IMG/VR virus record: IMGVR_UViG_3300044647_001784
Location: 1 to 64,000 of that record
Origin: a virus
Strand: one strand, 5' to 3'
Length of the DNA stretch: 64,000 nt
The position numbers and the translations under genes were made by a program. How positions within the stretch are numbered: position 1 is the stretch's first letter; every line of letters begins with the position of its first letter. The notes below the pieces were generated by a model. It was given only the letters and a program-made list of their open reading frames with translations. It searched no databases and was not told the origin of the DNA. This document shows positions 23,886-62,191 of the stretch, in pieces.

Positions 23886-24337
23886 TATACTTCTTCCAGT
23901 GCGATAGATAGGTCCCAAAATGCTTGTGCAGTGTCCGCCGCATTTTCTTTAACATTTCTTCTTACCATAGTTGCTGAGCATGAAGTAAATGAGGCAAGGA
24001 AAGTTTCTGTTCTTGTAGAATTATATGCAATTTTTACATTAAATGTGCCTTGTCCATGAGCACTTAAATAAAAGTTTTTTATATCTTCTGCTCCCCAGTA
24101 TCCATCTACGGTCATAGAGGTGTATGAAGGGACCATGCTCCAGGAGGTAGAGACTGTCTTCTTATCGGCTATAAACAGCTTTCTAAGGCTTCCATTGGCC
24201 ATCCTAGAAGTCTTCTCGAACCTTTGTGTTTCTACTACTATGGGGCTTCTGTTATGTTCAGTTAATGAATGGAAAACGCCAGCAGCGTCTTGCACAAACA
24301 AAGCTGCTCCTGCTGGTAAAACTAAAGCCGTTGCCAT
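23885..24337 (-). CDS. Distal tail-like protein
   Basis: Directly follows the tape measure; RMANGSLRK...WSMVP pattern. Confidence 0.65.
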   Translation of the reverse strand: MATALVLPAGAALFVQDAAGVFHSLTEHNRSPIVVETQRFEKTSRMANGSLRKLFIADKKTVSTSWSMVPSYTSMTVDGYWGAEDIKNFYLSAHGQGTFNVKIAYNSTRTETFLASFTSCSATMVRRNVKENAADTAQAFWDLSIALEEV

Positions 24338-47709: not shown

Positions 47710-48360
47710 TTACTTAATATATACATGTGCTGGGCTCATGTATCTTGTCCCAGAAGTGATTGGCATAACTTCATGTACATAAGGCTGCTGTGATGGGAAC
47801 ATAATTAGACTTCCAGCCTTTGGCTTAATTGTAATGTTTTGATTAGGAAAATGAATTTCTCCGCCTTCATAATCGTCATTTACATAGGCTACCAAAGAAA
47901 ATGCTAGAGTTGAATCTCCATCTTGCCCATCAAAATGTGGGCCCATGGACTGGCCCTGGTTCCACTTTTTAATTGGAACTTGGTTTAGCTCTAAATTATA
48001 TCTATTTTTATCCAGGTTATTTCCAGCTAAATATCTATCGGAACACATTTCAAATGCCATCAAAAAGCTATTTGCTATGTAAAGAGTTTTTTTATCAATT
48101 GCATCAGACCCAGTAGATTTTTTTAGATTAGATGAAAATATATTTTTTGTAGCCCCGTACACTATAGATTCATTATCGCTTGCTGTCCAGTTTTCCCACT
48201 TTGAAATTCTACTAAATGATGATGGCTCTAAATCTATCTCTTCTATAAAGTCCTTTAAGTACTCTGGAAAACTAAGTGCATTCTCCCAGTACCATATATT
48301 TTTTTCTACAATCTGCAAATTAAACATTGTAAATTGCTTGAATATTGGCTCGCCTTCCAT
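47710..48360 (-). CDS. 2OG-Fe(II) oxygenase, P4H-like
   Basis: MGPHFD, YVNDDYEGGEI, YVHEV, GTRYMS. Confidence 0.9.
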   Translation of the reverse strand: MEGEPIFKQFTMFNLQIVEKNIWYWENALSFPEYLKDFIEEIDLEPSSFSRISKWENWTASDNESIVYGATKNIFSSNLKKSTGSDAIDKKTLYIANSFLMAFEMCSDRYLAGNNLDKNRYNLELNQVPIKKWNQGQSMGPHFDGQDGDSTLAFSLVAYVNDDYEGGEIHFPNQNITIKPKAGSLIMFPSQQPYVHEVMPITSGTRYMSPAHVYIK

Positions 48361-48361
48361 A

Positions 48362-49114
48362 TTAGCCCTCTACTTCTGATGCTGGATAAACTTCTCCACG
48401 TGGAGTTATTCTTAAACCTTTATTTCTATAGTCTTCCCATTCAATGGCTTCATCTGCCTGCATTGCTCTAACTTTAGCAAGCTCTTCAGCCCAGGCATCT
48501 CTAACCTCTTGTGGGTAGTCACTCTCTTCTCTGTCATCCCAGAATGAGCCAAGTGTGTACCTGATTGATTTCTTAACTGTAGTAACTTCGTGCATATTGT
48601 GGAATCCTCCAGCAAAAGTGACTAAGGTTCCAGTTTTCGGAACAATTGTAAGCCCATGCTTAAAGTTTAAAACTCCATCTTCAAAGTCATCATTTAAATA
48701 AAGAAATGTTGCATATCTGCTTCTAGTAAATGCTCCTGAAACTCCATCATTAGATGTATTGTCAGAATGCATATTGGCAAAAGCTCCTGGGGCCCATCTT
48801 TGAGAATGCCAGCTAATTTGTGACATTTGTGCAGGATCTTTTCCAGCCATATCTGCTGTAACGTCAACTACTCTTTGTTTTAGAACTTGAAAAAAATCTC
48901 CTGGGAGCCCATTAGCAATTGTATCTGGATCATTTAGCTCTGGAGTTCCTGATGAGTATGACTCATAGAATGAAATTGGCATCCATCTTAATTGATCTTT
49001 TTCCATTTTAATTGCCAAAACTTTAATTATTGCTTGACATTCTTCTGGAGTAAGAAAGTTTTCATACTCAACTATATCCTCTTTATGTCTTTTAACAATC
49101 ATATTTCTTTCCAT
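48362..49114 (-). CDS. 2OG-Fe(II) oxygenase, P4H-like
   Basis: MHSDN, LYLNDDFEDG, MHEV, IRYTLGSFW. Confidence 0.9.
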   Translation of the reverse strand: MERNMIVKRHKEDIVEYENFLTPEECQAIIKVLAIKMEKDQLRWMPISFYESYSSGTPELNDPDTIANGLPGDFFQVLKQRVVDVTADMAGKDPAQMSQISWHSQRWAPGAFANMHSDNTSNDGVSGAFTRSRYATFLYLNDDFEDGVLNFKHGLTIVPKTGTLVTFAGGFHNMHEVTTVKKSIRYTLGSFWDDREESDYPQEVRDAWAEELAKVRAMQADEAIEWEDYRNKGLRITPRGEVYPASEVEG

Positions 49115-49932
49115 TAGTACATTTCTCCATCTTCTGTTGGATTGTAAACCTCATACGGAACCTGAACTCCATCTTTAAAATAAATCATATTTCTTTTGTT
49201 TTCGTAATTAGTTCTTTCCATTTCCATCTTAGCCCATCTAAATGCACCAAATTTTCTTTGGTTGGCAAGCCACTCCTCTGTTCCGTTATGAGGAACCATT
49301 ATAAAGTTTCTTACAAAAAACTTCTCATTGGTGTTAATTGTTTTAACGCCATGGTAGTATGGCTCAGTAGAAGGGAATACTAAAATATCTCCTGCAGCTG
49401 GCTTATGGTTTATAAACTTGCCGTCTACGTAAAATTCTATGTCTCCGCCGTCATAATCATCATTGATATACATAGTACATGTAAGGTAAAATTTGCTTCC
49501 AGGCATATCTTTTTCTGAAGTAATATGGTCTGTATGATACTGCATTGTCATCTTATTTGATAGAGTATCTATTTTAGCGTTATACTTTGAGTAAGAACAT
49601 CCACTAAAATGCCAGCCTTCTGGAAGATCAACACCATGTCTTTCTACATAGTCTAAAAGAACTTTATTATAAGCTGCCTCTACTTCTTCAACAAACTTTT
49701 TCTCTTTGATAAACATTTCGTCAGACAAAACTTCTGTAGAAACTTCTCGCATGTCTTTCTTTTGTGTGTATGTGCCAAAATGTGCCCAAGGATCCCACGT
49801 CTTCAAAAAGTACTTCCCATCTGATGTTTTTTCAGACTCATTCATTGTTTGATACAGTTCTTGTGGATTAGATAGAACGTTTCTGTAGACATCAATTTTA
49901 GGATGTAGCTCTATGTACTCTAAATTACTCAT
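49114..49932 (-). CDS. 2OG-Fe(II) oxygenase, P4H-like
   Basis: MQYHTD, YINDDYDGGDI, PSTEPYYHGVK. Likely start MSNLEY at 49932. Confidence 0.88.
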   Translation of the reverse strand: MSNLEYIELHPKIDVYRNVLSNPQELYQTMNESEKTSDGKYFLKTWDPWAHFGTYTQKKDMREVSTEVLSDEMFIKEKKFVEEVEAAYNKVLLDYVERHGVDLPEGWHFSGCSYSKYNAKIDTLSNKMTMQYHTDHITSEKDMPGSKFYLTCTMYINDDYDGGDIEFYVDGKFINHKPAAGDILVFPSTEPYYHGVKTINTNEKFFVRNFIMVPHNGTEEWLANQRKFGAFRWAKMEMERTNYENKRNMIYFKDGVQVPYEVYNPTEDGEMY

Positions 49933-50603
49933 GGCTGTTTTTCTCCTGTATGTTTTCTTATCGTCCAAAAAAATGGCGAAGTAAATCTATTTCCAGATTT
50001 TACTGGTCTTACCCCGTGAGTATAATTCATATCTCCTGGGAAAAAATATGCTGCTCCAGCAACAGGCTGGAACTCAATTCCATGTTGTGGGAAGTAAAGC
50101 TCTCCACCTTCATAATCATCGTTAAAGTAAAACAGTCCAGCTAAATCGTACCATGGGAAATTATTTGGTCTACCTTTTTCTGGGCCAGAGTGAAATTCTT
50201 TGTCTGCATGAGGCTCTTGTCTTGCACCTACTGGCCAGCGAACAATAGCTGGACCAGTTTCTTGTGCATCTACGCTAAAAAATTTATCTACTTCTATTTT
50301 TAATCTTGCTATCATGCTATAGATTAAATCTAATATTTCTGGATCAGAAGCCATAAGAGATGCATAGGTACAAACTCTATCTTCCCATACTGTGTGATCA
50401 TATAGCACAAGGCCGTCTGCATCTCTGCGTGTTTCAGTTATATCCCAAATTTTATTATTTTTTGCAAAGTCCATGAGTCTTTTTCTCTCATCTTCTGATA
50501 AGAAATTTCTTAGCTCTACAATGTTGTCTGAAGAGTTGCCAAAAAAACCAGAAGGTGTAATAGATTTAGGTGCATTGTTTTCCCAGTTATCTGCTAATTT
50601 CAT
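49929..50603 (-). CDS. 2OG-Fe(II) oxygenase, P4H-like
   Basis: PHADK, YFNDDYEGGEL, YTHGV, NRFTSPFFW. Likely start MKLADN at 50603 (GGAG RBS). Confidence 0.9.
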   Translation of the reverse strand: MKLADNWENNAPKSITPSGFFGNSSDNIVELRNFLSEDERKRLMDFAKNNKIWDITETRRDADGLVLYDHTVWEDRVCTYASLMASDPEILDLIYSMIARLKIEVDKFFSVDAQETGPAIVRWPVGARQEPHADKEFHSGPEKGRPNNFPWYDLAGLFYFNDDYEGGELYFPQHGIEFQPVAGAAYFFPGDMNYTHGVRPVKSGNRFTSPFFWTIRKHTGEKQP

Positions 50604-51333
50604 CTTTATCTCCATAATTAATTATATCATTGCTTACCTTAAGCCTTATTGATTTTACCTGGTGAGAGCCTATTTTTCTCTTTAAATGATCAACTGCATC
50701 CCTATAAAAATTTGACCAATCTCCAGAATTATTTAACCCTTTTATTGTTTCCCTGTATTCATTTGGGTCAAATACATCATTGTATGGATTTTGGGGAAAT
50801 TTTGAAATATCCTGAAAAACCATTTCAGAATTATTTAATGAGCTTAAATCTATTGGTAGTACTGCTACTACTGGGGTTCCTGCCTTAATGGTTATTACTT
50901 CATTTGGCTTTGTTATCATCCAGGCAATAGGGAGTGGGCCAGTAAAAAAAGAACTACTCATAATTGTAGTAAACGGAACTGCACCATCAATAAATAAATT
51001 TGGAACTGGCATTGAAAGCAAGCTTAAGTTTGTATCTGTTTTAAAAACTAATCCGCTATTAAAACTAATAGTTCCATTTGCTCTTCCAGAATATGCATAT
51101 TTTTGTCCAGACAATATTTTTACGTGATCTGGGCTGCTATCAGAAATTCCATCCCATATAAAAGATATGTCTTCTGGAAAAGATATTCCCCAGCCAAGCT
51201 GGTTACTTAAACTAACTGGAAAGCATTTGTATGCATGAGATTCAAATGTGTTGTCCATCCACTCTCTTTTTGCAGATAATGGCTCAAGTATACCAAGTCC
51301 TTCTTTAGTTATAAATACTTCTATTTTATCCAT
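50587..51333 (-). CDS. DUF6065-like protein
   Basis: KREWMD...HAYKCFPVSLSNQLGWGI...AGTPV...PI...FYRDAVD. Confidence 0.7.
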   Translation of the reverse strand: MDKIEVFITKEGLGILEPLSAKREWMDNTFESHAYKCFPVSLSNQLGWGISFPEDISFIWDGISDSSPDHVKILSGQKYAYSGRANGTISFNSGLVFKTDTNLSLLSMPVPNLFIDGAVPFTTIMSSSFFTGPLPIAWMITKPNEVITIKAGTPVVAVLPIDLSSLNNSEMVFQDISKFPQNPYNDVFDPNEYRETIKGLNNSGDWSNFYRDAVDHLKRKIGSHQVKSIRLKVSNDIINYGDKDEISR

Positions 51334-52030
51334 TTTGGTTTTTGCCAGTTGACAAATCTTCTTCTACCCATTTTGACCTCATTTGCATAAACTCTTGTCT
51401 ATGAGCATGGTCATTGTAATCTAACATGGTTACTATTGAAAATTTCATTCCAGATTCAACTGGCATGGCTCTATGTGAAAATAAATATGTAGATGGGAAT
51501 ATATATAGGTCTCCAGCTTTAGGCTTAATGTCTAAGTTTAATTTAGGAAAATATAGGTTCCCTCCCTCATAGTCATCGTTTACATAAGCTACAAGAGATA
51601 CTGTGGCGCTGTATGAAAACCCATGATCAGCATGCTCTTGAAAATGCTGTCCTTTGCCATATCTAATACAATTCATTACTTCCCAGTAATTCATTTTTAC
51701 GTTATACATATTACAATAATCTTCTACTGCTGGTAACTGATGCTGCTTTAAATCCTGCCATAAATCTGAAACCAATGATTGTGTTTTAGATTGTGGATTA
51801 GATATTTCTCCTACCTTAATATCTTCACAATCTCTGTAAGATGGTCTTTTTTCGCTATAACCAACAAATCCAAATGTCCATTCATATCTAGACTCTTTGT
51901 CTTCAATTGCAGACTGACCTATTACATTTAACCTATTTATTACGTCAATTTCTTTTTTAATTACATCTCTATACACCCAAACTCCTGGGAAAAGCTGTTC
52001 TTTAGAAGAAAAATTATATATGTTATTCAT
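51326..52030 (-). CDS. 2OG-Fe(II) oxygenase, P4H-like
   Basis: FQEHADH, YVNDDYEGGNL, FPSTYLFSHRA, KFSIV. Confidence 0.9.
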   Translation of the reverse strand: MNNIYNFSSKEQLFPGVWVYRDVIKKEIDVINRLNVIGQSAIEDKESRYEWTFGFVGYSEKRPSYRDCEDIKVGEISNPQSKTQSLVSDLWQDLKQHQLPAVEDYCNMYNVKMNYWEVMNCIRYGKGQHFQEHADHGFSYSATVSLVAYVNDDYEGGNLYFPKLNLDIKPKAGDLYIFPSTYLFSHRAMPVESGMKFSIVTMLDYNDHAHRQEFMQMRSKWVEEDLSTGKNQNG

Positions 52031-52037
52031 ACTATGA

Positions 52038-52067
52038 AGTATAGCATTTTTTAATTAGTAAAGTCAA
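52038..52067 (-). promoter_or_regulatory. Leaderless promoter of the oxygenase operon
   Basis: TTGACT-18nt-TATACT (extended TG), then 7 nt to the ATG at 52030. Confidence 0.75.
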
Positions 52068-52101
52068 TAAAGGACGGGAGATTTCTCTCCCGTCCTTTAT
52101 T
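52066..52101 (-). terminator. Rho-independent terminator after FFAPP-repeat gene 1
   Basis: AATAAAGGACGGGAGA-TTTC-TCTCCCGTCCTTTATT. Confidence 0.85.
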
Positions 52102-52112
52102 TGTGTTTTATA

Positions 52113-52946
52113 TTAAACTGCAAAGACTCCTGGTGCTCCGAATCCTGGCGGTGAGAAGAATCCTGGCGGTGCGAAGAATGCTGGCGGTGCGAAGAATCCT
52201 GGCGGTGCGAAGAATGCTGGCGGTGCGAAGAATCCTGGCGGTGCGAAGAATCCTGGCGGTGCGAAGAATCCTGGCGGTGCGAAGAAACTTGGCGGTGCGA
52301 AGAATGCTGGAGGGAAGAATGGTGGTGCAAAGAATGACGGTGCTAATGTCGTAACAGTATTTGTGTTATTTGATGCTGCTGATCTTCCATTAGCATTATC
52401 TGCATAAACATTGTAGTACTGAGATGTACTAGCTGTATCTGATATTGATATAGATAAGTTAGTTGTATTTCCAGTTGTTCCATCATTACCTTGAACAAAG
52501 TAGTTGGTTATTGGCTTTCCACCTGTTGCAGGTGCTCCCCAGCTAACCGTATTTGCATTAACTCCAGCAGTTGCAGATGCGCTTGTTGGTGCAGCTGGCT
52601 TTGTTGTTGCTGTTGCTGATGCTGAATTAGAATCTGCTGATGTTCCATAAAGGTCAACTGCTTTTACTGTATAAGAGTAAGAAGTTCCACCAACTAGTCC
52701 AGTATTAGAGAAGGTAGTAGTAGGAGCACTTACTGTTCCTACCTCTACTCCACTTCTAAATATTTTGTATTGAGTTGGTGCATTTCCTGTTGCTGGTGCT
52801 GTCCATGACAGATTAATCATTCCATCGTTAAAGTTTCGTTGGTTATTAACGCCGTTCAAATGATCTGCTGCGGTTAGCCCAGTTGGTGCATTTGGGCCAA
52901 TGAAGTTGTCTTGAGCTGATGCTCTTCTGCCTATATTTTTTGACAT
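52113..52946 (-). CDS. Two-FN3-domain protein with C-terminal (G/A/S)FFAPP repeats
   Basis: PNAPTGL...LSWTAP...YKIFR...YSYTVKAV; PAAP...VSWGAP...GRSAAS; about 11 FFxPP units. Confidence 0.85.
   Translation of the reverse strand: MSKNIGRRASAQDNFIGPNAPTGLTAADHLNGVNNQRNFNDGMINLSWTAPATGNAPTQYKIFRSGVEVGTVSAPTTTFSNTGLVGGTSYSYTVKAVDLYGTSADSNSASATATTKPAAPTSASATAGVNANTVSWGAPATGGKPITNYFVQGNDGTTGNTTNLSISISDTASTSQYYNVYADNANGRSAASNNTNTVTTLAPSFFAPPFFPPAFFAPPSFFAPPGFFAPPGFFAPPGFFAPPAFFAPPGFFAPPAFFAPPGFFSPPGFGAPGVFAV
52125..52340 (-). repeat. 18-bp coding tandem repeat (xFFAPP)n
   Basis: Plus-strand unit GAAGAATCCTGGCGGTGC and variants, about 10 copies. Confidence 0.95.
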
Positions 52947-52966
52947 TTTATTCTCCTATTCCCCAA

Positions 52967-55258
52967 TTATGCTTTCAAGTCTCCAGCAAGTAACCATGTA
53001 TCTGTTGCTACCTTGGTTATTGTTGCTGATGAATATAATGCTCTTAGCTTTAGTCCTGGAGTTCTCAATATTGTAACTCCAGATGCTTCTGCAAATACTG
53101 CGTCTGCTCCAGCTGACTGGTAGAAGCTTATTGAAGTTCCTATTGGATAAGCTGTAGTTGCATTTGTAGGAACTGTAATTGTGTGTGCTCCAGAAACTGG
53201 AATTAACTGATCTCTTAGCGCTAATCCACCTGTTGATAGATTGTATGCTCCAGCAATTGCTGTTCCAATTACAGTCCGTGAAGGAACGCCTTCCTTTGTC
53301 TGAGTTCCATCTGTAAACGCTACACCTGCTGCTGCAACCGTTACTGTTCCAGTAAATGTTGGTGAAGCAATTGGTGCTTTAGATGCAAGACTGGTAGTGA
53401 CTGTTGTTGCAAAGTTTGCATCGTCACCTAGTGCTGCAGCAAGCTCATCAAGGGTGTTAAGGGCTGCTGGGGCTGCTGCAATTACTGCATTTACCTGAGC
53501 TGTTGCATCTGCAATTGCTTCTGACTTAGCAGTTGCTATTGCTGAAGCCTGTGCTGTGGATACTGGCTTTGATGCATCTGATGTATTATCAACATTTGCA
53601 AGGCCTACTGAAGACTTTGTAAGTGCTGCTACTGCATTTGCAACCTTTGTGTCTGCTGCTAATCCTGCTGCTGTAATTGCATCTGCTTCTGCAGTGTCTG
53701 CATAAGACTTTGTTGCAAGAAGTGCTGTATCTGCAATTCCATGAACATCAGTTGTATCTGATGCGTGATTTGAAAGAGCTGTTGCAGCTGATCCAAACTG
53801 TGTTTGAATTGAAGATGTAACTCCATTTAGGTAAGTTATTTCTGTTGAATCAACATTACCTATGGTTGTTGACTCTGGCAAAACAACTAGACCTGCAAAT
53901 GTTGGTCCACTTAGTGGTGCTTTGGCATCTAGTGCGTCTCCTAGTCCAGCAATCTTGGACTGTGCAATTTCTGCACCGTCAACAATTTTTGCATTTGTAA
54001 TAGACTGAGCAGCAATCTTAGATTCTGTAACTGCATTGTTTGCAATTTTTGTTTCTGTTATGGCACCGTCTGCGATTTTACCATTAACTACTGCATTGTC
54101 TTGAATTTTTTCGCTAGTTACTGAATCAACAGCTAACTTTACATCAGTTACAGAGCCAGTTGCAATTTTGTCAGTTGAGATAGAACTATCTGCAACTTTA
54201 TCGTTTGTTACTGAGTTGGTTGCCAATTTTTGTTCTGTTACAGAGCTATTTGCAATTTTTTGTGTTACCACAGCGTTTGCTGCAAGCTTTTCTTCTGTTA
54301 CTCCTTGACTTTCAATTTTATCAGTTGTAACTGCACCGTTTGCAATTGAAGCAGATATAATTGATGAGACTGGAACATCAAGTGTTCCAGTAAATTCTGC
54401 GTTATTTATTGTTGCGCTAGATGTTGCTTCCAATCTTCCAAGGGCTAGTGTGTCTAAGGATCCTTGAGCAAAATTAACTACAGTGGTTGGAGTATCTGTA
54501 ACTCCTTTGAAAAGCTTCCACTTGTCTGCTGATGCATCACGAACTAGTCCAGTGTGGTTTGCTACTCCAGTGTTATGGTTAGCAACAAATCCTAAGTCTA
54601 AAATGTTTGTTGTATTGTCTTTTCCAATTGATAGAAGTGCATCTTCAAAAGCAACATTTTGGGTATCAATAGTTGTGGTTGTTCCGCTTACAATTAAGCT
54701 ACCATTAATAACTACGTTTTGAGCTGTTAGATCTCCCTCTGTTGAAATATGTGTTGTTAGGCCTGTTAGTTTTAGTTGAGCTTCTGGAACTTTAACGTTT
54801 CCATCAAGTGAAGCAACTCCGTTTGCTATGCCTCTGTCACCTGTCTCTAGGTATCCTGACAATGAGCTATTTACTCCATTTACAGCAGCATCTGTGTAAC
54901 CTTCTGCTGCTGAAATAGCTGCTTCTCTAGCTGCTGATGCTTCTGATGTTGCAAACGCTTTTGTAGAAATAACATTTGTATCTACAGTTATTGTTATTGT
55001 GTTTGATCCATCATTATAGGTCTTTGTAAGACCTGCTCCCATTGAAAGAGCCTGATCTATAGCATCTTGTGAAATTTCACCAATTGCTGCTGTGTCGGCT
55101 GCTGCATATGAAAGAGCGGTCCATGTAGATGAACCATTACCGAATTTAAATTTATTAGTGTTTGTTTCAACACCCATTTCACCTGCAGCTAATACTGGAT
55201 TTGCTGCGGTCCATTCTGAAGATAAACCTCTACGTACTTGAATTCTTACTGTTGACAT
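52967..55258 (-). CDS. Fibre-like protein with Mtd-N/hyaluronidase-type N-terminus and 10-aa repeats
   Basis: IQVRRG...EWTAANPVLAAGEMGVETNTNKFKFGNG; IAxxAVTxxK repeats; C-terminal DTWLLAGDL. Confidence 0.75.
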   Translation of the reverse strand: MSTVRIQVRRGLSSEWTAANPVLAAGEMGVETNTNKFKFGNGSSTWTALSYAAADTAAIGEISQDAIDQALSMGAGLTKTYNDGSNTITITVDTNVISTKAFATSEASAAREAAISAAEGYTDAAVNGVNSSLSGYLETGDRGIANGVASLDGNVKVPEAQLKLTGLTTHISTEGDLTAQNVVINGSLIVSGTTTTIDTQNVAFEDALLSIGKDNTTNILDLGFVANHNTGVANHTGLVRDASADKWKLFKGVTDTPTTVVNFAQGSLDTLALGRLEATSSATINNAEFTGTLDVPVSSIISASIANGAVTTDKIESQGVTEEKLAANAVVTQKIANSSVTEQKLATNSVTNDKVADSSISTDKIATGSVTDVKLAVDSVTSEKIQDNAVVNGKIADGAITETKIANNAVTESKIAAQSITNAKIVDGAEIAQSKIAGLGDALDAKAPLSGPTFAGLVVLPESTTIGNVDSTEITYLNGVTSSIQTQFGSAATALSNHASDTTDVHGIADTALLATKSYADTAEADAITAAGLAADTKVANAVAALTKSSVGLANVDNTSDASKPVSTAQASAIATAKSEAIADATAQVNAVIAAAPAALNTLDELAAALGDDANFATTVTTSLASKAPIASPTFTGTVTVAAAGVAFTDGTQTKEGVPSRTVIGTAIAGAYNLSTGGLALRDQLIPVSGAHTITVPTNATTAYPIGTSISFYQSAGADAVFAEASGVTILRTPGLKLRALYSSATITKVATDTWLLAGDLKA
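53950..54345 (-). repeat. 10-residue protein repeat (I/L)AxxSVTxxK, about 13 copies
   Basis: IANGAVTTDK IESQGVTEEK LAANAVVTQK IANSSVTEQK ... Confidence 0.85.
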
Positions 55259-55319
55259 TATGCCACCCCTTTAATTTGATATATTGAAATTATAGCATTA
55301 AAACGATTATACTTGAGCA

Positions 55320-55682
55320 TCATGCTACTAACGCTCCTGAATCAAAAGTTATTCCGAATTCAGATGTTGATGGCTCTCCGCCAGATATGAACTTGTTTGT
55401 TCCTGTTGGAGTTACACCGTTTGCCTGAATTATATATGTTGGTTGACCATCGTAATCAATAGCCAATCCTACGTCCATAAATGTAAGCATGTTAGCTTCA
55501 TTTGGAATCTCTGAATATAAAGCAATAGGCTGCCAAGTTCCATCTATCTGAACCTTGAGCCTATTTGTTGTTGTATCAAAAGATATTGGGGCTGACCCTA
55601 AAACTATGTCTGTGTCAAACGTCGCAGTGCCTGCTACATTTAACCCGTTCTTTACTCTAAAATTTTTATTTACTGTTGCCAT
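55320..55682 (-). CDS. Small virion-type protein
   Basis: N-terminus MATVNKNFRVKNGL is shared with 55752..57158. Confidence 0.7.
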   Translation of the reverse strand: MATVNKNFRVKNGLNVAGTATFDTDIVLGSAPISFDTTTNRLKVQIDGTWQPIALYSEIPNEANMLTFMDVGLAIDYDGQPTYIIQANGVTPTGTNKFISGGEPSTSEFGITFDSGALVA

Positions 55683-55712
55683 TTAAGTTCACATATCCCC
55701 TAATTGTTATTG

Positions 55713-55737
55713 TGGGGGATTTTTAAGGAATCCCCCA
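55713..55737 (-). terminator. Stem-loop after the Ala-rich fibre gene
   Basis: TGGGGGATT-7nt-AATCCCCCA; no clear minus-strand U-tract. Confidence 0.6.
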
Positions 55738-55751
55738 AAACCTTTATTTAA

Positions 55752-57158
55752 TTATTTAAGAAGTGTTCCAGTTACTTTGATTGTTGAATCATTTACTGGA
55801 TCTACTCTTAGCTGAACATTTGCACCAGATACTGATGCTGTAATTGTGCCTCGTGCTCCATTAGTTCCAACGATTGCATACTCTGTAATTGCTACGTTGT
55901 CTGATGAATCTAGAGTTACTAGAATTTCTGATATTTCGTTGTGTGTTCCGTTGTCAATCTTAACAACAAACTTTCCTGAGCGGTAAGCCGCCTTTGGCCA
56001 CTCGTATGCAGTTACAACAACTGATCCAAGTGATGTTGATGATGCTGCAATTTGCTTAGCCTCATCATTAATGTTTAATGCTGTGAATGCTGTAGTTCCA
56101 TCTTGCTGTGCTGTATTAGCTGCTGCTGCTGTTGCTTCTGCTGCTGCTTGAGCGTCGTTAGCCTTAGATGTTGCATCTGCTGATGCAGTAGCTTCTGCTG
56201 CTGCTTGGGCTGCGTTAGCCTTAGATGTTGCATCTGCTGATGCTGTGGCTTCTGCTGCAGCCTGTGCTGCGTTAGCCTTAGATGTTGCATCTGCTGATGC
56301 TGTGGCTTCTGCTGCAGCCTGTGCTGCGTTAGCCTTAGATGTAGCGTCTGCTGATGCATTTGAAGCGGCAGTTGCAAGACTTGCAGTTACATCTGCTGAA
56401 TTAGCCTTTGTTGCTAATGCTGATGTAAGAGTTGTTGTGTAATTAGCGTCGTCATTTATTGCTGCTGCCAATTCATTTAATGTGTTAAGAAGAGCTGGTG
56501 CTCCATCTACTAATGAATCTACTGCATTTGAAATTGCTGTATTGCGGTTTGAAACCTCTGTTGATATTGCAGATGAAAGAGCTGATGCTGCAGTTGCTTC
56601 TGCTGCTGCTTGAGCGGCGTTAGCTTTTGTAGTAGCATCTGCTGCTGCTGCAGAGATTGCTGCAGACTGTGCTGCATTGGCCTTTGATGTTGCATCTGCT
56701 GATGCTGTAGCTTCTGCTGCTGCTTGAGCGGCGTTAGCCTTAGATGTTGCATCTGCTGCTGCAGTTGAAACTGAAGCTGCATCGCCTGATACTCTAAGTG
56801 CTGCTTCTGCGGCTACCTTAGTTGTAGCATCAGTTGCTGCTGCTGTAATTGCAGCTGACTGTGCATTTGAAGCTTTTGTGCTTGCATCAGTTGCTGCTGC
56901 AGAAATTGCTGCTGCTTCAGCTGCTGAAGCGGAACCGTATGAGTCAAATGTATTAGCATTTACTGTAAGGTTACCTGAACCATCTACAGAAAATACTCCT
57001 GTATCTACTGACTTTACAAGTGTAGCTCCACCAACGAGGTTGAGAATATAGGAATCTCCACCTGTTTCTGTAAGTATATTTTGACCACCGATTGTACCTG
57101 TGTTACCTTCTACAATGAGGCCTGATTTAATTCTAAAGTTTTTTACTACTGTTGCCAT
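55752..57158 (-). CDS. Ala-rich coiled-coil fibre-like protein
   Basis: 19-aa ADATSKANAAQAAAEATAS repeats, APALLNTLNELA motif and a beta-rich C-terminal domain. Confidence 0.75.
   Translation of the reverse strand: MATVVKNFRIKSGLIVEGNTGTIGGQNILTETGGDSYILNLVGGATLVKSVDTGVFSVDGSGNLTVNANTFDSYGSASAAEAAAISAAATDASTKASNAQSAAITAAATDATTKVAAEAALRVSGDAASVSTAAADATSKANAAQAAAEATASADATSKANAAQSAAISAAAADATTKANAAQAAAEATAASALSSAISTEVSNRNTAISNAVDSLVDGAPALLNTLNELAAAINDDANYTTTLTSALATKANSADVTASLATAASNASADATSKANAAQAAAEATASADATSKANAAQAAAEATASADATSKANAAQAAAEATASADATSKANDAQAAAEATAAAANTAQQDGTTAFTALNINDEAKQIAASSTSLGSVVVTAYEWPKAAYRSGKFVVKIDNGTHNEISEILVTLDSSDNVAITEYAIVGTNGARGTITASVSGANVQLRVDPVNDSTIKVTGTLLK
56130..56790 (-). 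repeat. 57-bp coding repeats (19 aa) in two clusters
   Basis: Near-identical GTTAGCCTTAGATGTTGCATCTGCTGATGC... units at 57-nt spacing (56130-56360), with a second cluster at ~56590-56790. Confidence 0.9.
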
Positions 57159-57187
57159 TTATATGACTCCTCTTACTGCTTTTTTTG

Positions 57188-57745
57188 TTATGCCTTTAAT
57201 GCTGTTCTTACAAATCTTACTGCGATTTCACCAGAAACAGGGGTGACTCTTAAACTAATTATACCTGAATTTTCTTCAAAGGTATAAGTAAATAGGCTAT
57301 TGTTTGTGTTTGATATGATGTTAGACTCTGATACTAGCATGTCTGATCCAGATTGTGTTGCCGTGATCTCAGATGCATAAACATCTGCTCCCCTTGTAAC
57401 CTGAAGATTATATCTTACTGTTTTCCATGTATTTTTTGCAAATGAATCTACATTAGTTGCATTTTCAATTCCATAAACTGCAAGGTCGTTATTACCTTCT
57501 AGGCCAAGTAGCTCTATTACATTGTCTGTGCTGTTATCTAGGTCTCCTAGAATAGAAACTATATCGTTAATTTTATAGGTTAAAGAATCTGGATCTTGTG
57601 ACCCATCTATTCCTACCTTTATTTGAAGAGCTTCAATTGCATCATTTGCATTTGCATGTTGCTCTGAATGTGATGGCGCTGATAATTGATCAGTGCCGTT
57701 TGGATTAATTAATTCGTCTAGATTGTTTGGATAATTGGTGGCCAT
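57188..57745 (-). CDS. Virion-type protein
   Basis: MATNYPNNLD...HANANDAIEALQ; C-terminal domain resembles that of 55752..57158. Confidence 0.7.
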   Translation of the reverse strand: MATNYPNNLDELINPNGTDQLSAPSHSEQHANANDAIEALQIKVGIDGSQDPDSLTYKINDIVSILGDLDNSTDNVIELLGLEGNNDLAVYGIENATNVDSFAKNTWKTVRYNLQVTRGADVYASEITATQSGSDMLVSESNIISNTNNSLFTYTFEENSGIISLRVTPVSGEIAVRFVRTALKA

Positions 57746-57815
57746 TGGCTACCCCCTTGTGTAAGTCTTGTTACTTAGTCAATTATATCCTACAAATATT
57801 TATAATCCACCAAAT

Positions 57816-58052
57816 TTACCATTTATTTATAGGGCATTGAGCAGCAGAAAGCTTGGTTTTTAACTTCATTATACATCCGCATTTTTTGCATTGTGTAGTT
57901 AAGTCAATGAACTCTGGACAAGACCTACACACGCTATACCTTTGTTCTTGCAATTCATTTGGTGCAAAATCTGTGTTGGGGTTTAACAAATCCCAAGGCC
58001 TAGTGTCACCTAAGTTTTCTTTGTATTTTTCCCATGCACTTTTTTCTGTCAT
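57816..58052 (-). CDS. Small Cys-rich protein (DUF6171-like)
   Basis: RYSVCRSC...QCKKCGC.MKLKT...CPINKW. Confidence 0.7.
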   Translation of the reverse strand: MTEKSAWEKYKENLGDTRPWDLLNPNTDFAPNELQEQRYSVCRSCPEFIDLTTQCKKCGCIMKLKTKLSAAQCPINKW

Positions 58053-58087
58053 AGTTTAACTTTCTAGTGTTGTAAGCTTGTATTATA

Positions 58088-58117
58088 ATTTTAACATAAT
58101 TTACATTAATATGTCAA
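58088..58117 (-). promoter_or_regulatory. Promoter for the Cys-rich gene
   Basis: TTGACA-18nt-TAAAAT with extended TG. Confidence 0.65.
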
Positions 58118-58135
58118 TGTAAGTTTTATATTTGT

Positions 58136-60535
58136 TTATACAGCAAATACTCCTGGTGCTCCGAATGCTGGCGGTGCGAAGAACTCTGGTGGCGCAAAGA
58201 CTGGGTCTGGGTCTGGTTCTGGGAATGCTGGTGGTGTAAAGACTGGTTCTGGATCTGGATCTGGAAATGCTGGTGGTGAAAAGAATCCTGGTGGCGCAAA
58301 GAATGATGGTGGTGCAAATACAGCTGGTGCACATCCTGCTTGGGCTGCGGCTGCTAAAGCGGCAGAAGATGTTGATCGGTATCTCAATACTTCTCGTGCA
58401 CTACTTGGACCTGAAATTACATCTGTTGGAATTGATGAAGCAGTATAAGGACCACTAACAGATGGACTTGAGCCATAATTTCCAGAGTTATTGTTACACA
58501 AAGAATATCCTATATAATAAGTTACTGTTACTGGTGGTGTACATTCCTGAGTTTGTGTTTCAGTATATGCAGTGCATGATCCAGCATGATAGTTTGTTCT
58601 TGTTTTAGTTTGTGTTCCTTCAGAAGAACATGTGCTCCATGCGCTCCATGCACTTGGTGTTGGACATGAAATAAAATCACCGCAGCATTGCTGTCCAACG
58701 CTTATTGCATAAGTTGTAGAGTTACCAAGTAACTGTCTTCCAAGCTCAGCACAGGTATATGCTGCTGCATTTGTTATAGTTCCTGGACATGCTGGTTTTT
58801 CTTGTGGTGGTGGGAAATCTGGGGATGCTTGATACGTAAACTTATTTACTGTAATTGTAGGTATTGGAGATGAATTTACAATAGTTCCAGCAGCGGGGGA
58901 TTGTGAAGAAACTAGTCCTTCTTTTGTATAATCAGTGGTGCCAACTGCTGTTCCTGCTGCAATGTTGTAACTTGATGTGCTAGAAGGATTATATGTTCCA
59001 ACTAGGTTTGGGATTGTATATGTTGTGGGTACGCAAACTGGGGTTCTAGATACTCCTCCAGCAACCTGATTATTTATTCCTGGCTCATCAGCGTTGCAAG
59101 CTGCATTTAATCCTGTAAGAGCTGCGCTGCTATTTGCATAAGTTCCAGTTACTCCAGCCCCATTGCCGCAACAGGCCCAATATTGAACTGGTGAAGTAGG
59201 CTCTTCTGCTTCTTTTGTTGTAGATGCAACTGAGTTACTGCTATATGTTTTTGAGGTAGTATTTAAATCGGTAGTCAATACATAAACAGAAGATGTTATT
59301 GACTTGTTGTCATATTGAGTTGTGTCGCCTAGGCTTAATGTACTTCCAATTCCAAATGGTATGTTGACCCCATCCGCATACCATTCATGAATATAAGAAT
59401 AAATTGAAGAAGAATTACTCCATGTTCCATTTGTTGATGTAAATGATCTTCCAGTTCCAGAAACTGTTGGTGCAACTTGATTTACTGGTAAAGGAACTGA
59501 TGGATATACTATAGGTAATCCTGGGAAAGAAGACCATGATGTTTCAGTAAATCTTGGAGCGGTTCCAGTTACAGTAATTGTGTATGATCCATATGTTGTT
59601 CCGCCAACCCCTATTCTTTCAATCCAATATGAGGTTTGAGAAGGACCTCCAGAAAAATATGAACTAGACTCCATATTACCGTTGTTATATACAATCCATT
59701 CTGTTGGCTGTATTAAATTTAAAGACCAAGACAGGGTTCCTCCATTTGAGCTTGAAGACATAGTCGTTGTAACTCCAGGCTTATTTGGCTTTACATCAGA
59801 AACTGATGCATTAGCACCAATACCTTGAACTGTAGTTCCGCTAATATTAGATGTATTTAGTGGTCTTACTAATAACAAAAGTCCGCCGCTTCCATTTCCA
59901 GTATCTATCTCATATGTATTTACATCTCCAGTAAGCTGTATTTCTCCAGAAGCGGCACCTGAATATTGTATATAAAAATCATTTGCTCCAATTGGCTTTG
60001 TCCAATCTACTTTTATTACTCCATTTGATACTACAGATGCAGATACAACAGAAAGTTTTTGTGGACCTATTAATGGGCTCGGTAAAGTATAGACATCTGG
60101 ATCATTATCTCCAGCAGCATTTGTAGCTGTTACCTTACACCTTACAACATACCCAACATACTTTAAAGTTCTAGTAGAATTCCATTCGTCTTCATCTAAT
60201 TGAAGTGTATTTGATGTCTTGCCTGTAATGTTTGACCAATTATATGAAGACCCAGTCCATGCTGCTTTTTGCCATTGATATTTAAATGAAGTTGGAGAAT
60301 TTTCCCAGACACCGTTTGAAACAGAAACAGTTTCTTGTGCTGCATACCAGAAAGCTCCTCCTTGCAATGAAAGTATAGGAAGCTCTGTGTTTTTTGGTTT
60401 TAAGTCAAGTAGGGATTTCCATTCAGAACCATCCCATATATATGCCGCTTTAGATTCATTCCATGTGCTTCCATCATGAATCTGTACTTTTTTTAAAGGA
60501 TTCCAACTGGAACCGTCAAAAATATTTAGCGGCAT
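58136..60535 (-). CDS. Multidomain surface protein (Ig/FN3-like, PASTA-like, TSP1-like) with C-terminal FAPP repeats
   Basis: GVWENSPTSFKYQWQ and PVNQVAPTVSG...NGTW Ig-like units; IPNLVG...GLVSSQSPAAG; WSAWSTCS; ends FGAPGVFAV. Confidence 0.8.
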   Translation of the reverse strand: MPLNIFDGSSWNPLKKVQIHDGSTWNESKAAYIWDGSEWKSLLDLKPKNTELPILSLQGGAFWYAAQETVSVSNGVWENSPTSFKYQWQKAAWTGSSYNWSNITGKTSNTLQLDEDEWNSTRTLKYVGYVVRCKVTATNAAGDNDPDVYTLPSPLIGPQKLSVVSASVVSNGVIKVDWTKPIGANDFYIQYSGAASGEIQLTGDVNTYEIDTGNGSGGLLLLVRPLNTSNISGTTVQGIGANASVSDVKPNKPGVTTTMSSSSNGGTLSWSLNLIQPTEWIVYNNGNMESSSYFSGGPSQTSYWIERIGVGGTTYGSYTITVTGTAPRFTETSWSSFPGLPIVYPSVPLPVNQVAPTVSGTGRSFTSTNGTWSNSSSIYSYIHEWYADGVNIPFGIGSTLSLGDTTQYDNKSITSSVYVLTTDLNTTSKTYSSNSVASTTKEAEEPTSPVQYWACCGNGAGVTGTYANSSAALTGLNAACNADEPGINNQVAGGVSRTPVCVPTTYTIPNLVGTYNPSSTSSYNIAAGTAVGTTDYTKEGLVSSQSPAAGTIVNSSPIPTITVNKFTYQASPDFPPPQEKPACPGTITNAAAYTCAELGRQLLGNSTTYAISVGQQCCGDFISCPTPSAWSAWSTCSSEGTQTKTRTNYHAGSCTAYTETQTQECTPPVTVTYYIGYSLCNNNSGNYGSSPSVSGPYTASSIPTDVISGPSSAREVLRYRSTSSAALAAAAQAGCAPAVFAPPSFFAPPGFFSPPAFPDPDPEPVFTPPAFPEPDPDPVFAPPEFFAPPAFGAPGVFAV

Positions 60536-60544
60536 TTGGTCTCC

Positions 60545-62191
60545 TTAGTATTGAATGTAGATGTCTCCAGCAGAGTTTCCGCTTGAAGGTGGTGTTATAT
60601 CTGTTCCATAAGTAATTTTATTAATATTTGATCCTGATATACCATTTGTGTATCCAGTAACAACAGTTCCGCCAAGTGCTATCGCTGTTCCATTTATGGT
60701 AATTGAATTATTTTCAAGCATTGTATTTGATATTGCTGGCACAGCAGATGTTAATATCTTACCTGCTGAATCTAGACCAGCATACCCATTGCTTTGGTTT
60801 CTTTCATTTTCTGGCTGATATCCACCAAGTGAGTTTTCTATTCCTTCTATTGCCAAGTCAGTGTAATCATTAGCAGAGGCTAAAGTAGAAGCCAAACCTG
60901 AAGTTAGGTTGATAGCTGTTGCATATCCAGATATTAATGCCCCTGCTGGTATTGTAACTGTACCAGTAAATGTAGGAGAGGCAATTGGTGCAAACCCTGC
61001 AATACTTGCTCCTTCTGGAATTGTTACTGTACCAGTAAATGTAGGAGAAGCAATTGGTGCCTTTAATCCAATTAAAGATGTTAAAGAAGAAGCTGCAGTT
61101 TGATCTTGTGCAATATAATCTGAAATCTCTTTAAGAGTATCAAATGCAGTTGGTGCAGAAGCAATAACTCCTTCAATAGCAGAGACTAAATCTGAAGATC
61201 TTGCTATTGTTTGTGGTATAACAGATTCTAATACCTTGCTATTTGAGTCCAAACCAGCAATTCCACCAGAAGAATTTCTATCTGAAACTGGAATGTAATT
61301 TGTTAATTCTGAAATTGGGACATAATTTGTTAAGCTAGTATTAACTTCTGTTCTTAAATCATCGACTGCTGTTAATGCAGATACAAGCACAGCTGTTCTA
61401 GCATTGTTTGTGGCTGAAATTGCTCTAGCATTAGTAAAATATAAATTGCTGCCTTCTGGAACGTCTGAAGTAGAAGATATGTTTGATATAGGCGGGATAA
61501 AACCTGAAAGTGCTTCGTCTGTATATTCCTTGGCCCCAGCGACTTCTTGATCTACATAGCCTCTTGTTTGTGTAATAAGTGGATTTACTATGTTATTAAC
61601 TCTAGACTCTGTAAAATAAAGTCTTGTTCCTTCTTCTATATCAGATGTGCTTAAAGCATTTATTGATGCTACTGTAAATTCTTCAGCGTCTGCTTTAGCG
61701 GTAACAAGTGCGGCAGCAACTTTGTCTGTTGCATCTATTGCTGCAGCTAGTTTAGCTGCATTTACTTTTGTTGTAGAATCTTGTTTTGCTTCATCTAGTG
61801 CATCATCTGCAGATCCTATTGGGTCAAATAACCCTTGCACTGCATTGACTGCTCTAGGTTCTGAAAAATATAAATTTCCTGATTCTGTAATGTCATTTGT
61901 TGTAATAGAAGACAAAGCATTTTGTATTGCAAGCAGAGCTTCGGAGTCTAATGAAACTTGATCTGGAAGCTGGGATAAAGGAATTTTGCCATCTGAATTT
62001 AATGTAGCAACTCCGTTAGCCATTCCAGGTTTAAGGGCATAAGAAGTTATTGAGTTCCATCTTTGAGTTCCATTGCCTATTTTAAACTTAAGCGTGTCTG
62101 TTTCTATTCCTATTTCACCGTTCAAAAGCAATGGGTTATTTGCTGCCCAGTTTGCTGCAACATCTCTTCTTAATTGAATTTTATATGCCAT
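60545..62191 (-). CDS. Fibre-like protein with Mtd-N-type N-terminus
   Basis: IQLRRD...WAANNPLLLNGEIGIETDTLKFKIGNG; three T.D..EG.NLYF repeats; two APIASPTFTGTVT; ends GDIYIQY. Confidence 0.75.
   Translation of the reverse strand: MAYKIQLRRDVAANWAANNPLLLNGEIGIETDTLKFKIGNGTQRWNSITSYALKPGMANGVATLNSDGKIPLSQLPDQVSLDSEALLAIQNALSSITTNDITESGNLYFSEPRAVNAVQGLFDPIGSADDALDEAKQDSTTKVNAAKLAAAIDATDKVAAALVTAKADAEEFTVASINALSTSDIEEGTRLYFTESRVNNIVNPLITQTRGYVDQEVAGAKEYTDEALSGFIPPISNISSTSDVPEGSNLYFTNARAISATNNARTAVLVSALTAVDDLRTEVNTSLTNYVPISELTNYIPVSDRNSSGGIAGLDSNSKVLESVIPQTIARSSDLVSAIEGVIASAPTAFDTLKEISDYIAQDQTAASSLTSLIGLKAPIASPTFTGTVTIPEGASIAGFAPIASPTFTGTVTIPAGALISGYATAINLTSGLASTLASANDYTDLAIEGIENSLGGYQPENERNQSNGYAGLDSAGKILTSAVPAISNTMLENNSITINGTAIALGGTVVTGYTNGISGSNINKITYGTDITPPSSGNSAGDIYIQY

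Follow-up and report, generated by a model that had tools for sequence, protein, structure and literature searches.

Short C-terminal motifs on unrelated proteins of one genome are known from the LPXTG/sortase and PEP-CTERM sorting signals, in which a hydrophobic transmembrane stretch and then a basic cluster come after the motif and the protein also carries an N-terminal signal peptide. In phage tail-fibre clusters, conserved N-termini are joined to modular C-terminal tips that change rapidly, in a cassette-like manner, among close relatives. Prolyl 4-hydroxylase (P4H)-type 2OG-Fe(II) oxygenases adjoin Pro-rich repeat proteins in chlorovirus PBCV-1 (5c5t) and Bacillus anthracis (3itq/5hv0), and the substrates of the known P4H enzymes are PAPK or Gly-X-Y sequences. 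In collagens and phage fibres, oligomeric stalks are nucleated, aligned or terminated by devices that include C-propeptides, cystine knots and self-cleaving C-terminal chaperone domains. Bacterial intein-like (BIL) domains belong to the Hedgehog/intein (HINT) superfamily (e.g. 2lwy), and cleaved products are their main outcome (PMC7664689).

Here we describe a locus of an uncultured lake phage with likenesses to these systems, located in the first 64,000 nucleotides (hereafter the window) of IMG/VR record IMGVR_UViG_3300044647_001784. Like tail-fibre tips, the ends of the proteins concerned are exchanged among close relatives, but the exchanged piece can be as small as 9-13 residues, its carrier is a low-complexity tail with predicted disorder, and it is duplicated on two different proteins of one genome. 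As in PBCV-1 and B. anthracis, P4H-type enzymes are encoded beside Pro-rich repeat proteins. In contrast to those cases, there are five divergent paralogues together with a DUF6065 protein, the repeat unit is Phe-Phe-x-Pro-Pro, the genome is that of a bacteriophage and hydroxylation is predicted only.

According to the ORF list, two minus-strand genes of the window, encoding proteins of 277 and 799 amino acids, share the nine C-terminal residues FGAPGVFAV (Table 1). The codons are TTC GGA GCA CCA GGA GTC TTT GCA GTT TAA in the 277-aa gene and TTC GGA GCA CCA GGA GTA TTT GCT GTA TAA in the 799-aa gene; all three base differences are synonymous, as the initial annotation stated in describing a tag conserved at the protein level only. 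Its observations that SFFAPPGFF(A/S)PP occurs in both repeat tracts and that the larger protein contains acidic spacers (PDPDPEP/PEPDPDP) are likewise borne out. The residue preceding the tag is G in one protein and A in the other, so the identity extends over exactly nine residues. When the tag and its stop codon are written as a degenerate pattern, the phage's own 86,296-base record contains only two matches, namely in these genes, and the nine matches of the pattern FFxPPxFF are confined to the same two genes (eight in the 277-aa gene and one in the 799-aa gene). The match between the two proteins is not due to chance.

Table 1. Features of the tagged genes and their surroundings in the window.
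Feature	Position	Strand	Basis
Six-gene block directly downstream of the 277-aa gene	47710..52030	-	Pfam
Five prolyl-4-hydroxylase-type 2OG-Fe(II) oxygenases	47710-48360, 48362-49114, 49114-49968, 49929-50615, 51326-52030	-	PF13640, E 1e-7 to 7e-14
DUF6065	50587-51333	-	Pfam, E 5e-28
Promoter-like site TTGACT-18-TATACT	52067-52038	-	consensus scan only
Candidate hairpin with a stem of 16 bp, past the 277-aa gene and before the oxygenase block	52066..52101		consensus scan only
277-aa gene: conserved N-terminal peptide, two fn3/Ig-like domains, Phe/Pro repeat tail, tag	52113..52946	-	ORF, Pfam, AlphaFold2
Tag FGAPGVFAV of the 277-aa protein, residues 269-277 (stop codon 52113-52115)	52116..52142	-	tag pattern, codons
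Repeat tract of the 277-aa protein, residues 204-267: SFFAPP, FFPP, then nine xFFxPP units	52146..52337	-	translation
799-aa gene: conserved N-terminus, PASTA-like and TSP1-like Cys-rich middle, Phe/Pro tail with acidic spacers, tag	58136..60535	-	
Tag FGAPGVFAV of the 799-aa protein, residues 791-799 (stop codon 58136-58138)	58139..58165	-	tag pattern, codons
Repeat tract of the 799-aa protein, residues 739-789: VFAPP SFFAPP GFFSPP AFPDPDPEP VFTPP AFPEPDPDP VFAPP EFFAPP	58169..58321	-	

Both tagged proteins are encoded in a neighbourhood of tail-fibre genes, and alignments indicate that the N-termini are conserved within each family. The smaller is a fibronectin type III domain protein, as judged by a Pfam match to PF00041 (E 6.8e-10; 39.5 bits against a cut-off of 25) and by an AlphaFold2 model in which residues ~20-200 are predicted to form two strand-rich beta-sandwich domains (pLDDT >90). 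Its tail lacks secondary structure in the model and is predicted to be disordered (pLDDT 47-59). This protein has 175 homologues at E<=0.001. The 799-aa protein begins MPLNIFDGSSW..., a region that includes invariant columns in the family alignment (alignment A2), and shows Pfam similarity to TSP_1 (residues 628-666, E 0.0033) and PASTA (PF03793; residues 507-555, E 0.017, 15.5 bits), both under the curated cut-offs (23.2 bits for PASTA). The PASTA cut-off is reached by the orthologue in L035 (E 3.8e-5, 24.0 bits), and a mini-protein in L065 gives a PASTA match of 33.3 bits. In distant relatives the second tailed protein consists of just a PASTA domain and an F-rich tail, and the paired endings are alike (FSVFGFR and FSVFAFR); in these tiny proteins the tail could equally be the virion-anchoring end.

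The tail module appears to be specific to phages. The tag pattern was found in two other IMG/VR stretches, one being the orthologous tail in a close relative (L004), while the second match, in the high-GC phage L003, is a spurious frame. Of 12 stretches matched in the JGI metagenome collection, 11 could be placed in an ORF, and all of these matches are internal to unrelated high-GC ORFs, with none (0/11) at a C-terminus after repeats. Three consecutive FFxPP units occur in 34 stretches among 185,579 species genomes. Only L168 and L174, contigs binned into Bacteroidia/Bacteroidetes MAGs, contain family members; those of the remaining matches that fall in ORFs of at least 40 aa are spurious frames or low-complexity DNA, and thus no cellular family with this tail was found in these genomes. 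When only the tail (residues 205-277) served as query, 18 matches were obtained among proteins of 152-485 aa, 15 of them already known from the search with the whole protein, and no new kind of "head" on the Phe/Pro tail emerged; P0107, P0124 and P0125, the three sequences read, are fragments of the same tail families. Against cultured phages, in collections from which records of this genome or a very near one may be excluded, neither megablast of positions 52000-60600 nor tblastn of the 799-aa protein gave a match. The corresponding search with the 277-aa protein returned fn3 matches only (12 records from phages of Listeria, Bacillus and Stenotrophomonas, each aligned over less than 80% of the query). 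Among the records and abstract openings covered by literature searches, no publication on the FGAPGVFAV motif or system or on hydroxylation of phage fibres was found, and a freshwater-phage paper (PMC6802176) contains none of the terms sought in it.

In related phages the position of the tag is occupied by one of three interchangeable classes of cap: a short tag, a Cys-rich knot or a terminal, putatively self-cleaving BIL domain. The alternatives join the repeats at a single point, "PP-x-F-(G)", in the same phase, and the other short tags mostly conform to x-F-G...R-x-Y. The BIL domains start with an invariant Cys directly after the repeats (19/19 aligned domains), and although their single-sequence Pfam matches fall below threshold, a profile built from them matches inteins as well as 2lwy (E 5e-8), the structure of a bacterial intein-like domain. 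They differ from the canonical domain in that the Block-B His is replaced by Gln in most of them, and their cleavage is predicted only. The two proteins of the window contain no HINT/BIL domain (a Hint fold of ~140-170 aa with an N-terminal Cys/Ser nucleophile), as their tails stop nine residues past the repeats.

The initial annotation proposed that tails should be shared within genomes while differing between them, and the 34 distinct fn3/large-protein pairs compared, which come from contigs of related phages, share ancestry and are not independent, mostly agree with this, the same C-terminal module being present on both proteins in 21/34 pairs. Seven pairs possess an identical short tag, of which there are four variants (FGAPGVFAV, TFGGGFIRIY, TFGSRFIRSY and TFGSRFIRAY), and 14 possess the same subtype of BIL/Hint domain (eight of the "...VIA/AIA" type and six of the "DWFF..HNK" type). 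The other 13 pairs are unmatched (four combine a tag with a Cys knot, four have different tags, three combine a BIL domain with a Cys-rich end without repeats, one a tag with a BIL domain and one a tag with a Cys-rich end), and matching is therefore not obligatory. Caps can also change between proteins with near-identical N-domains: the fn3 N-domain of the window is 98% identical to that of L005 and 96% identical to that of L013, despite which these relatives carry the tags RFGGGGLRFY and RFGFTGLRAY. In a tree of the BIL domains, copies from the two genes mostly separate by gene within two deep clades, which indicates that many matches were inherited from few old events, and the large-protein copies of L098, L099 and L104 nest within the fn3 clade.

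At the nucleotide level, the paired tags of six genomes differ by 24 bases in total, all of them (24/24) synonymous, although only 25-29% of all single-base changes in these codons are silent. Together with the 21 matched pairs this supports the earlier claim that selection maintains a shared C-terminal element. In L009, L010 and L011 no residue distinguishes the paired tags, yet 5-7 of their 10 codons are different; the large-protein genes use TCT and ATA (and, in L009 and L010 only, AGA) and the fn3 genes TCA, ATC/ATT and CGT/CGA. At position -2, L008 and L011 have Ser in the products of both genes, whereas L009 and L010 have Ala in both. The amino acid change hence tracks the genome and codon usage tracks the gene, which is evidence against recent gene conversion, on a basis of ten codons and one clean parallel change. 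On these sequence comparisons, the cap is shown to be exchangeable and conserved at the protein level while synonymous sites drift.

The oxygenases follow a different pattern. Their nearest solved structures are B. anthracis P4H (3itq/5hv0, E 1.6e-7), PBCV-1 P4H (5c5t), P3H1 and PiuC, and the full set of five plus DUF6065 is present at 46/46 loci with Pro-Pro repeats and at 0/11 loci without, whatever the cap. The Pro-Pro repeats, and not the tag, are probably what these predicted prolyl-hydroxylase-like enzymes recognize and act on. Where genomes have a tag in common, all proteins compared are 88-100% identical, so that any tracking of tag type with oxygenase alleles is inseparable from kinship, and the 47-64 kb region contains no gene specific to tag-type genomes.

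Several known identities for the tailed proteins were considered and rejected. Although "PP-x-F-G" bears a loose likeness to the five-residue cleavage motif of sorting signals, the chain ends nine residues past the repeats, none of them basic, with neither a basic cluster nor a hydrophobic helix, a hydrophobic signal region is missing from both N-termini (MSKNIGRRASAQ... and MPLNIFDGSSW...), and no sortase-like gene is seen near the two genes in the ORF list or among Pfam and PHROG matches. The pairing of collagen with a neighbouring P4H-type enzyme finds a parallel in the five PF13640 genes, whose activity is predicted only, but the xFFxPP unit (x = G/A/S here and V/T/N/R/L in relatives) does not place Gly at every third residue, and FFPP units shift the phase, so the repeat is not a collagen-like triple helix. 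Neither protein has a Pfam or PHROG match to a self-cleaving C-terminal chaperone domain of the peptidase S74 type. An outer-membrane beta-signal, which has an alternating pattern at the end of the protein, was dropped; most tags end R-x-Y, and a Gram-positive host is suggested by the PASTA domains together with a major capsid protein that shares 59-63% identity with its Streptomyces phage counterparts.

The best reading, to which we would give an even chance, is that the two FGAPGVFAV ends form a matched terminal docking piece for a common partner, which may act in assembly or in receptor binding, the other two options of the initial annotation. The module consists of xFFxPP repeats, a last half-unit "PP-x-F" and a cap, here FGAPGVFAV, and is carried by two otherwise unrelated tail-fibre-cluster proteins, the fn3 protein and the PASTA/TSP1-like, putatively cell-wall-binding protein. 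Docking would probably involve a short terminal strand with a free carboxyl end, and the need for both tails to fit one and the same partner would be the reason that selection keeps their ends matched. Caps can, from the sequences, pass between the two genes by recombination in the DNA that encodes the repeats. Against this reading stand the 13 unmatched pairs, the shared ancestry of the pairs, the predicted disorder of the tail and the lack of a gene specific to tag-type genomes at 47-64 kb. Conserved N-termini, with caps swapped between near-identical N-domains as in receptor-binding tips, lead us to lean towards a partner that belongs to the host envelope and not to the virion; the host-facing orientation is suggested by analogy with tail fibres, and the presence of either protein in the virion by gene position. 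A complex prediction for two fn3 tails (residues 196-277) and one large-protein tail (730-799), run without controls, gave a score of 0.00, which weighs neither for nor against binding.

Among the alternatives, it is rather unlikely that the cap is an end-piece for folding or register, which would nucleate, align or terminate an oligomeric Phe/Pro stalk in which both proteins co-assemble and hence match. The three cap classes recall register and nucleation devices, every cap joins in the same phase past "PP-x-F", P4H-like enzymes adjoin the genes, and repeat type and cap are often both common to a genome's two proteins; against this, Gly does not recur at every third residue (x may also be V, T, N or R), 13/34 pairs are unmatched, and the rapid turnover of caps between near-identical N-domains is left without a reason. 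An unlikely explanation, also, is that there is no selection for sameness, the 3' ends being copied by repeat-seeded recombination or gene conversion and each tag being separately subject to purifying selection. The repeats are a good recombination substrate, since units are near-identical in DNA (period 18 bp, 9.5 copies and 93% matches at 52140-52310; periods 42 and 18 bp at 58186-58329 in the 799-aa gene). Transfers between genes are seen in the BIL tree for L098, L099 and L104, and the paired tags of L007, L092 and L008 are one base apart. Such copying does not, however, account for the divergent codons of L009, L010 and L011, for the tracking of Ser/Ala with the genome and of codon signature with the gene, or for the changes that tags undergo from genome to genome at comparable synonymous distances, and each tag would still need a function of its own.

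The part of the initial annotation that does not stand is its suggestion of a follower peptide for the modifying enzymes. A recognition peptide recruiting the adjacent oxygenases, or a multi-core precursor whose repeats are excised after modification, would fit an oxygenase block that begins 83 bases downstream of the tagged fn3 gene and co-occurs with repeat tails. Yet the cluster adjoins Pro-Pro tails with every cap, even with BIL domains that would remove themselves, which makes such a role very unlikely. Caps are also wholly different between genomes whose oxygenases are 74-93% identical, neither a protease nor a cyclase is found among the neighbours scanned, and the carriers are multidomain tail-fibre-cluster proteins with folded domains, in contrast to short RiPP-like precursors. 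It is equally improbable, if more far-reaching, that the caps represent different chemical routes by which a hydroxylated Phe/Pro stalk is fixed at its free end to the host cell wall. The PASTA domain would bring the fibre to peptidoglycan, and in BIL-type phages the invariant Cys would form a thioester that an amine of the wall resolves, leaving the fibre covalently attached to peptidoglycan, while in tag-type phages "PP-x-F-G" plus a short tail would be a non-covalent or enzyme-processed equivalent. If true, this would constitute a new irreversible mode of phage adsorption and a new kind of post-translationally modified virion fibre.

Two questions that had been merged are now separate, the oxygenases being associated with the Pro-Pro repeats and the tag with something else. 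A simple experimental handle is provided by the sharing of one tag between two proteins, its replacement in close relatives and the putatively self-cleaving intein-like domain found at the same position. Should both proteins be virion adhesins, the caps would represent a compact, swappable "end-piece code" on the fibres of uncultured Actinobacteria phages from lakes, a group that is large and abundant, and the adjoining oxygenases may be the first protein-hydroxylation system of a bacteriophage.

The fn3 protein (277 aa) and the large protein (799 aa) carry an identical nine-residue C-terminal tag (see the table), and inspection of the ORFs and codons confirmed, as noted in the initial annotation, that the two copies differ only synonymously (three third-position codon differences, 3/3); the residue preceding the tag is unlike (G versus A). 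The tag pattern occurs at two sites only in the whole phage record (86,296 bases, whose first 64 kb make up the window; completeness about 80% by CheckV estimate), both at these two genes, to which FFxPPxFF is also confined in that record. The fn3 protein has a Pfam fn3 match, and AlphaFold2 confidently models its residues from about 20 to 200 as two beta-sandwich domains (pLDDT above 90), followed by a tail (201-277) predicted without secondary structure (pLDDT 47-59). The large protein shows weak TSP_1 and PASTA matches, and its orthologue in the related phage locus L035 attains the PASTA cut-off.

Features of the window surrounding the two tagged genes
Feature	Position	Strand	Remarks
277-aa protein gene	52113..52946	-	ORF, C-terminus FGAPGVFAV
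799-aa protein gene	58136..60535	-	ORF, C-terminus FGAPGVFAV
Tail-fibre-like gene	52967-55258	-	PHROG match
Tail-fibre-like gene	55752-57158	-	PHROG match; 468 aa, coding tandem repeats with a 57-bp unit (Ala-rich, 19 aa)
57-bp repeats	56120-56357		4.2 copies at 92%
57-bp repeats	56582-56780		3.5 copies at 71%
Tail-fibre-like gene	60545-62191	-	PHROG match
Tail-fibre-like gene	62649-63620	-	PHROG match
Strong hairpin	52066-52101		just downstream of 277-aa gene, ahead of oxygenase genes
Oxygenase gene	51326-52030	-	PF13640
Oxygenase gene	49929-50615	-	PF13640
Gene overlap	49929-49968		40 bases, adjacent genes of tightly packed oxygenase block
Gene overlap	50587-50615		29 bases, same block
DUF6171 gene	57816-58052	-	small Cys-rich protein, Pfam E 2.4e-7; directly downstream of 799-aa gene; tblastn match in many related loci
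Strong promoter-like site	58117-58088		TTGACA-18-TAAAAT, ahead of DUF6171 gene
Portal, protease, capsid genes	40-44 kb
Very long ORF	24337-35415	-	3692 aa, TTG start, between tail genes and head genes

The 9-residue pattern has 12 occurrences in the JGI metagenome collection; the 11 that could be placed in an ORF are all internal, in unrelated high-GC frames, and none is C-terminal after repeats. In IMG/VR one match (L003) is a chance occurrence and another (L004) comes from a close relative, in the orthologous tail. The shared tag is therefore real and not due to chance. No cellular family with at least three FFxPP units was found among 185,579 species genomes. Full-text literature searches returned nothing on the motif or such a phage system in the result listings and opening lines of abstracts, and neither appeared in a term search of PMC6802176.

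With its counterparts in Streptomyces phages (e.g. Sham, Faust and Coruscant) the major capsid protein shares 59-63% identity, and the host is therefore probably a freshwater actinobacterium. Two family members (L168 and L174; GC 36% and 32%) come from contigs assigned to Bacteroidia/Bacteroidetes MAGs; either these are misbinned phage contigs, or they provide a host hint at odds with the actinobacterial signals.

A total of 175 homologues of the fn3 protein fall at E<=0.001. Common to the 120 listed are the fn3 part and a conserved peptide at the N-terminus, and their C-termini are unlike. Most contain xFFxPP/FFPP repeats followed by one of three caps: a short tag, a Cys-rich knot or a domain of 156-184 residues; in another group the repeats are rich in F/G/S/V and lack Pro-Pro. 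The short tags collected include 40 distinct ones; R-x-Y is the ending of 24, and FAV, as in the window, of only two. The first residue of the 156-184-residue domain, immediately behind the final PP-x-F(G), is a Cys, invariant in 19/19 aligned copies. Its profile matches the bacterial intein-like (BIL) structure 2lwy (E 5e-8) and several inteins; single-sequence Pfam matches to Intein_splicing, Hint_2 and PT-HINT were all below threshold. The products of BIL domains are mainly cleaved ones, according to an excerpt of PMC7664689. In many relatives (L027, L035, L043, L057, L098 and others) both tailed proteins end in an invariant-Cys BIL domain. Eight loci (L014, L017-L019, L032, L038, L039 and L059) encode a different C-terminal domain, which starts with ...KSVG... 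and has Ser at the Cys position. L005 and L013 have fn3 N-domains that share 98% and 96% identity, respectively, with that of the window, yet their tags are quite different, and the large proteins of both these loci end in a Cys knot, unlike that of the window. Caps thus also move separately from the remainder of the gene.

Loci with up to 10 kb of flank per side were retrieved for 80 of 502 relatives of the fn3 protein and 80 of 128 of the large protein. Both genes were recognised via their N-terminal parts in 58 loci; after exclusion of six with a cut ORF and of L048, whose "large" match is not an orthologue, and addition of the window, 52 pairs remained, of which 34 are distinct in the last 200 residues of both proteins. 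The proposal that tails are shared within genomes and differ between them held for 21 of these 34 pairs, which possess the same C-terminal module on both proteins, and failed for the 13 mismatched pairs, the 34 not being independent of one another. The common module is an identical tag in seven pairs (that of the window, TFGGGFIRIY in L007 and L092, TFGSRFIRSY in L008 and L011, and TFGSRFIRAY in L009 and L010), a BIL type ending ...VIA/AIA in eight and a BIL type ending DWFF..HNK in six. Mismatches comprise tag versus Cys knot (four pairs: L005, L013, L089, L107), two different tags (four: L015, L024, L123, L124), BIL versus a Cys-rich end without repeats (three: L021, L028, L062), tag versus BIL (L101) and tag versus Cys-rich end (L141). 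Each of the two BIL types found in both genes forms a deep clade in the tree built from 71 C-terminal domains. Inside these clades copies are mostly split by gene, with exceptions including the large-protein copies of L098, L099 and L104, which lie among fn3 copies; the pattern of matches therefore goes back to a handful of old between-gene transfers plus some later ones.

Selection for a shared C-terminal element, as originally suggested, is borne out by the paired tags of six genomes, in which all 24 base differences are synonymous and no residue differs, although only 25-29% of the single-base changes possible in these codons would be synonymous. A rival reading is that tag identity is a by-product of recombination. 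The tag pairs of L007, L092 and L008 differ at a single base, so recent exchange between the two genes also takes place, and the near-identical 18-bp repeat units of the tail-coding DNA (93% matches) are an obvious substrate for it. Paired tags differ at six of 10 codons in L009 and seven of 10 in L010. The large-protein tags are encoded with TCT and ATA in L009, L010 and L011, and AGA in L009 and L010, where the fn3 gene tags of these three loci have TCA, ATC/ATT and CGT/CGA. The synonymous signature thus tracks the gene, and residue -2 tracks the genome: each gene of the pair encodes Ser there in L008 and L011, and Ala in L009 and L010. This combination looks like parallel change under shared constraint and not recent conversion, though the argument draws on ten codons and a single event.

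Downstream of the fn3 gene and the hairpin are five PF13640 oxygenases and a DUF6065 gene, all on the minus strand. Two of the five (those tabulated) were compared with solved structures; their nearest relatives are the prolyl 4-hydroxylases (P4H) of Bacillus anthracis and chlorovirus PBCV-1, P3H1 and PiuC. A census of 57 loci (80 fn3 loci, less 12 duplicates and 11 with <6.5 kb downstream of the fn3 gene) revealed DUF6065 and 4-9 oxygenase-like ORFs in 46/46 loci with Pro-Pro repeats, whatever the cap, BIL included; the 11 loci without Pro-Pro have no DUF6065 (0/11) and 0-2 oxygenase ORFs. The option that the tag is a follower peptide for the modifying enzymes is not supported by this distribution; on the combined evidence the oxygenases are associated with the repeats rather than the tag. 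On the fn3 N-domain tree the Pro-Pro label needs four changes, at least three of them forced by well-supported branches; for example, L079 is placed among the oxygenase-rich loci L083, L084, L077 and L080. Tail and oxygenase block, being physically adjacent, could be transferred as a unit. Genomes with the same tag share 88-100% identity across all proteins compared, which makes tracking of oxygenase alleles by tag inseparable from kinship.

Among known systems, those that come closest are viral and bacterial P4H paired with Pro-rich repeat proteins, modular tail-fibre tips, BIL/Hedgehog-type autoprocessing domains and C-terminal sorting signals. The features that define collagen-like helices, RiPP precursors, sortase-type signals and HINT domains are missing from the window's two proteins. 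A further rival reading is that the cap might be a folding or register device.

For this cap, which the comparisons show to be shared, selected, exchangeable and independent of the oxygenases, and for the tail that bears it, we infer a function in which both tails would end alike because of one common partner. Most tags consist of a Gly-rich linker, five or six strand-prone residues and a free carboxyl end, a form that suggests docking by a terminal strand. Within 47-64 kb, no gene is confined to genomes of the tag type. In two distant relatives the second tailed protein consists only of one PASTA domain plus an F/G/S/V-rich tail (L065:3169-3708, 179 aa, Pfam E 4.6e-8; L066:2906-3232, 108 aa, E 1e-4); each locus also encodes an fn3 protein with a similar tail, lacks DUF6065 and contains no more than two oxygenase ORFs. 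Such mini-proteins would have little but the tail left for holding on a particle, which counts against a partner on the host side. Nevertheless, we lean towards a host-side partner, because the N-termini conserved in both the fn3 and large-protein families and the rapid turnover of caps resemble tail fibres; by this likeness the proteins would be fixed to the particle by the N-terminus, with the variable C-terminus meeting the host.
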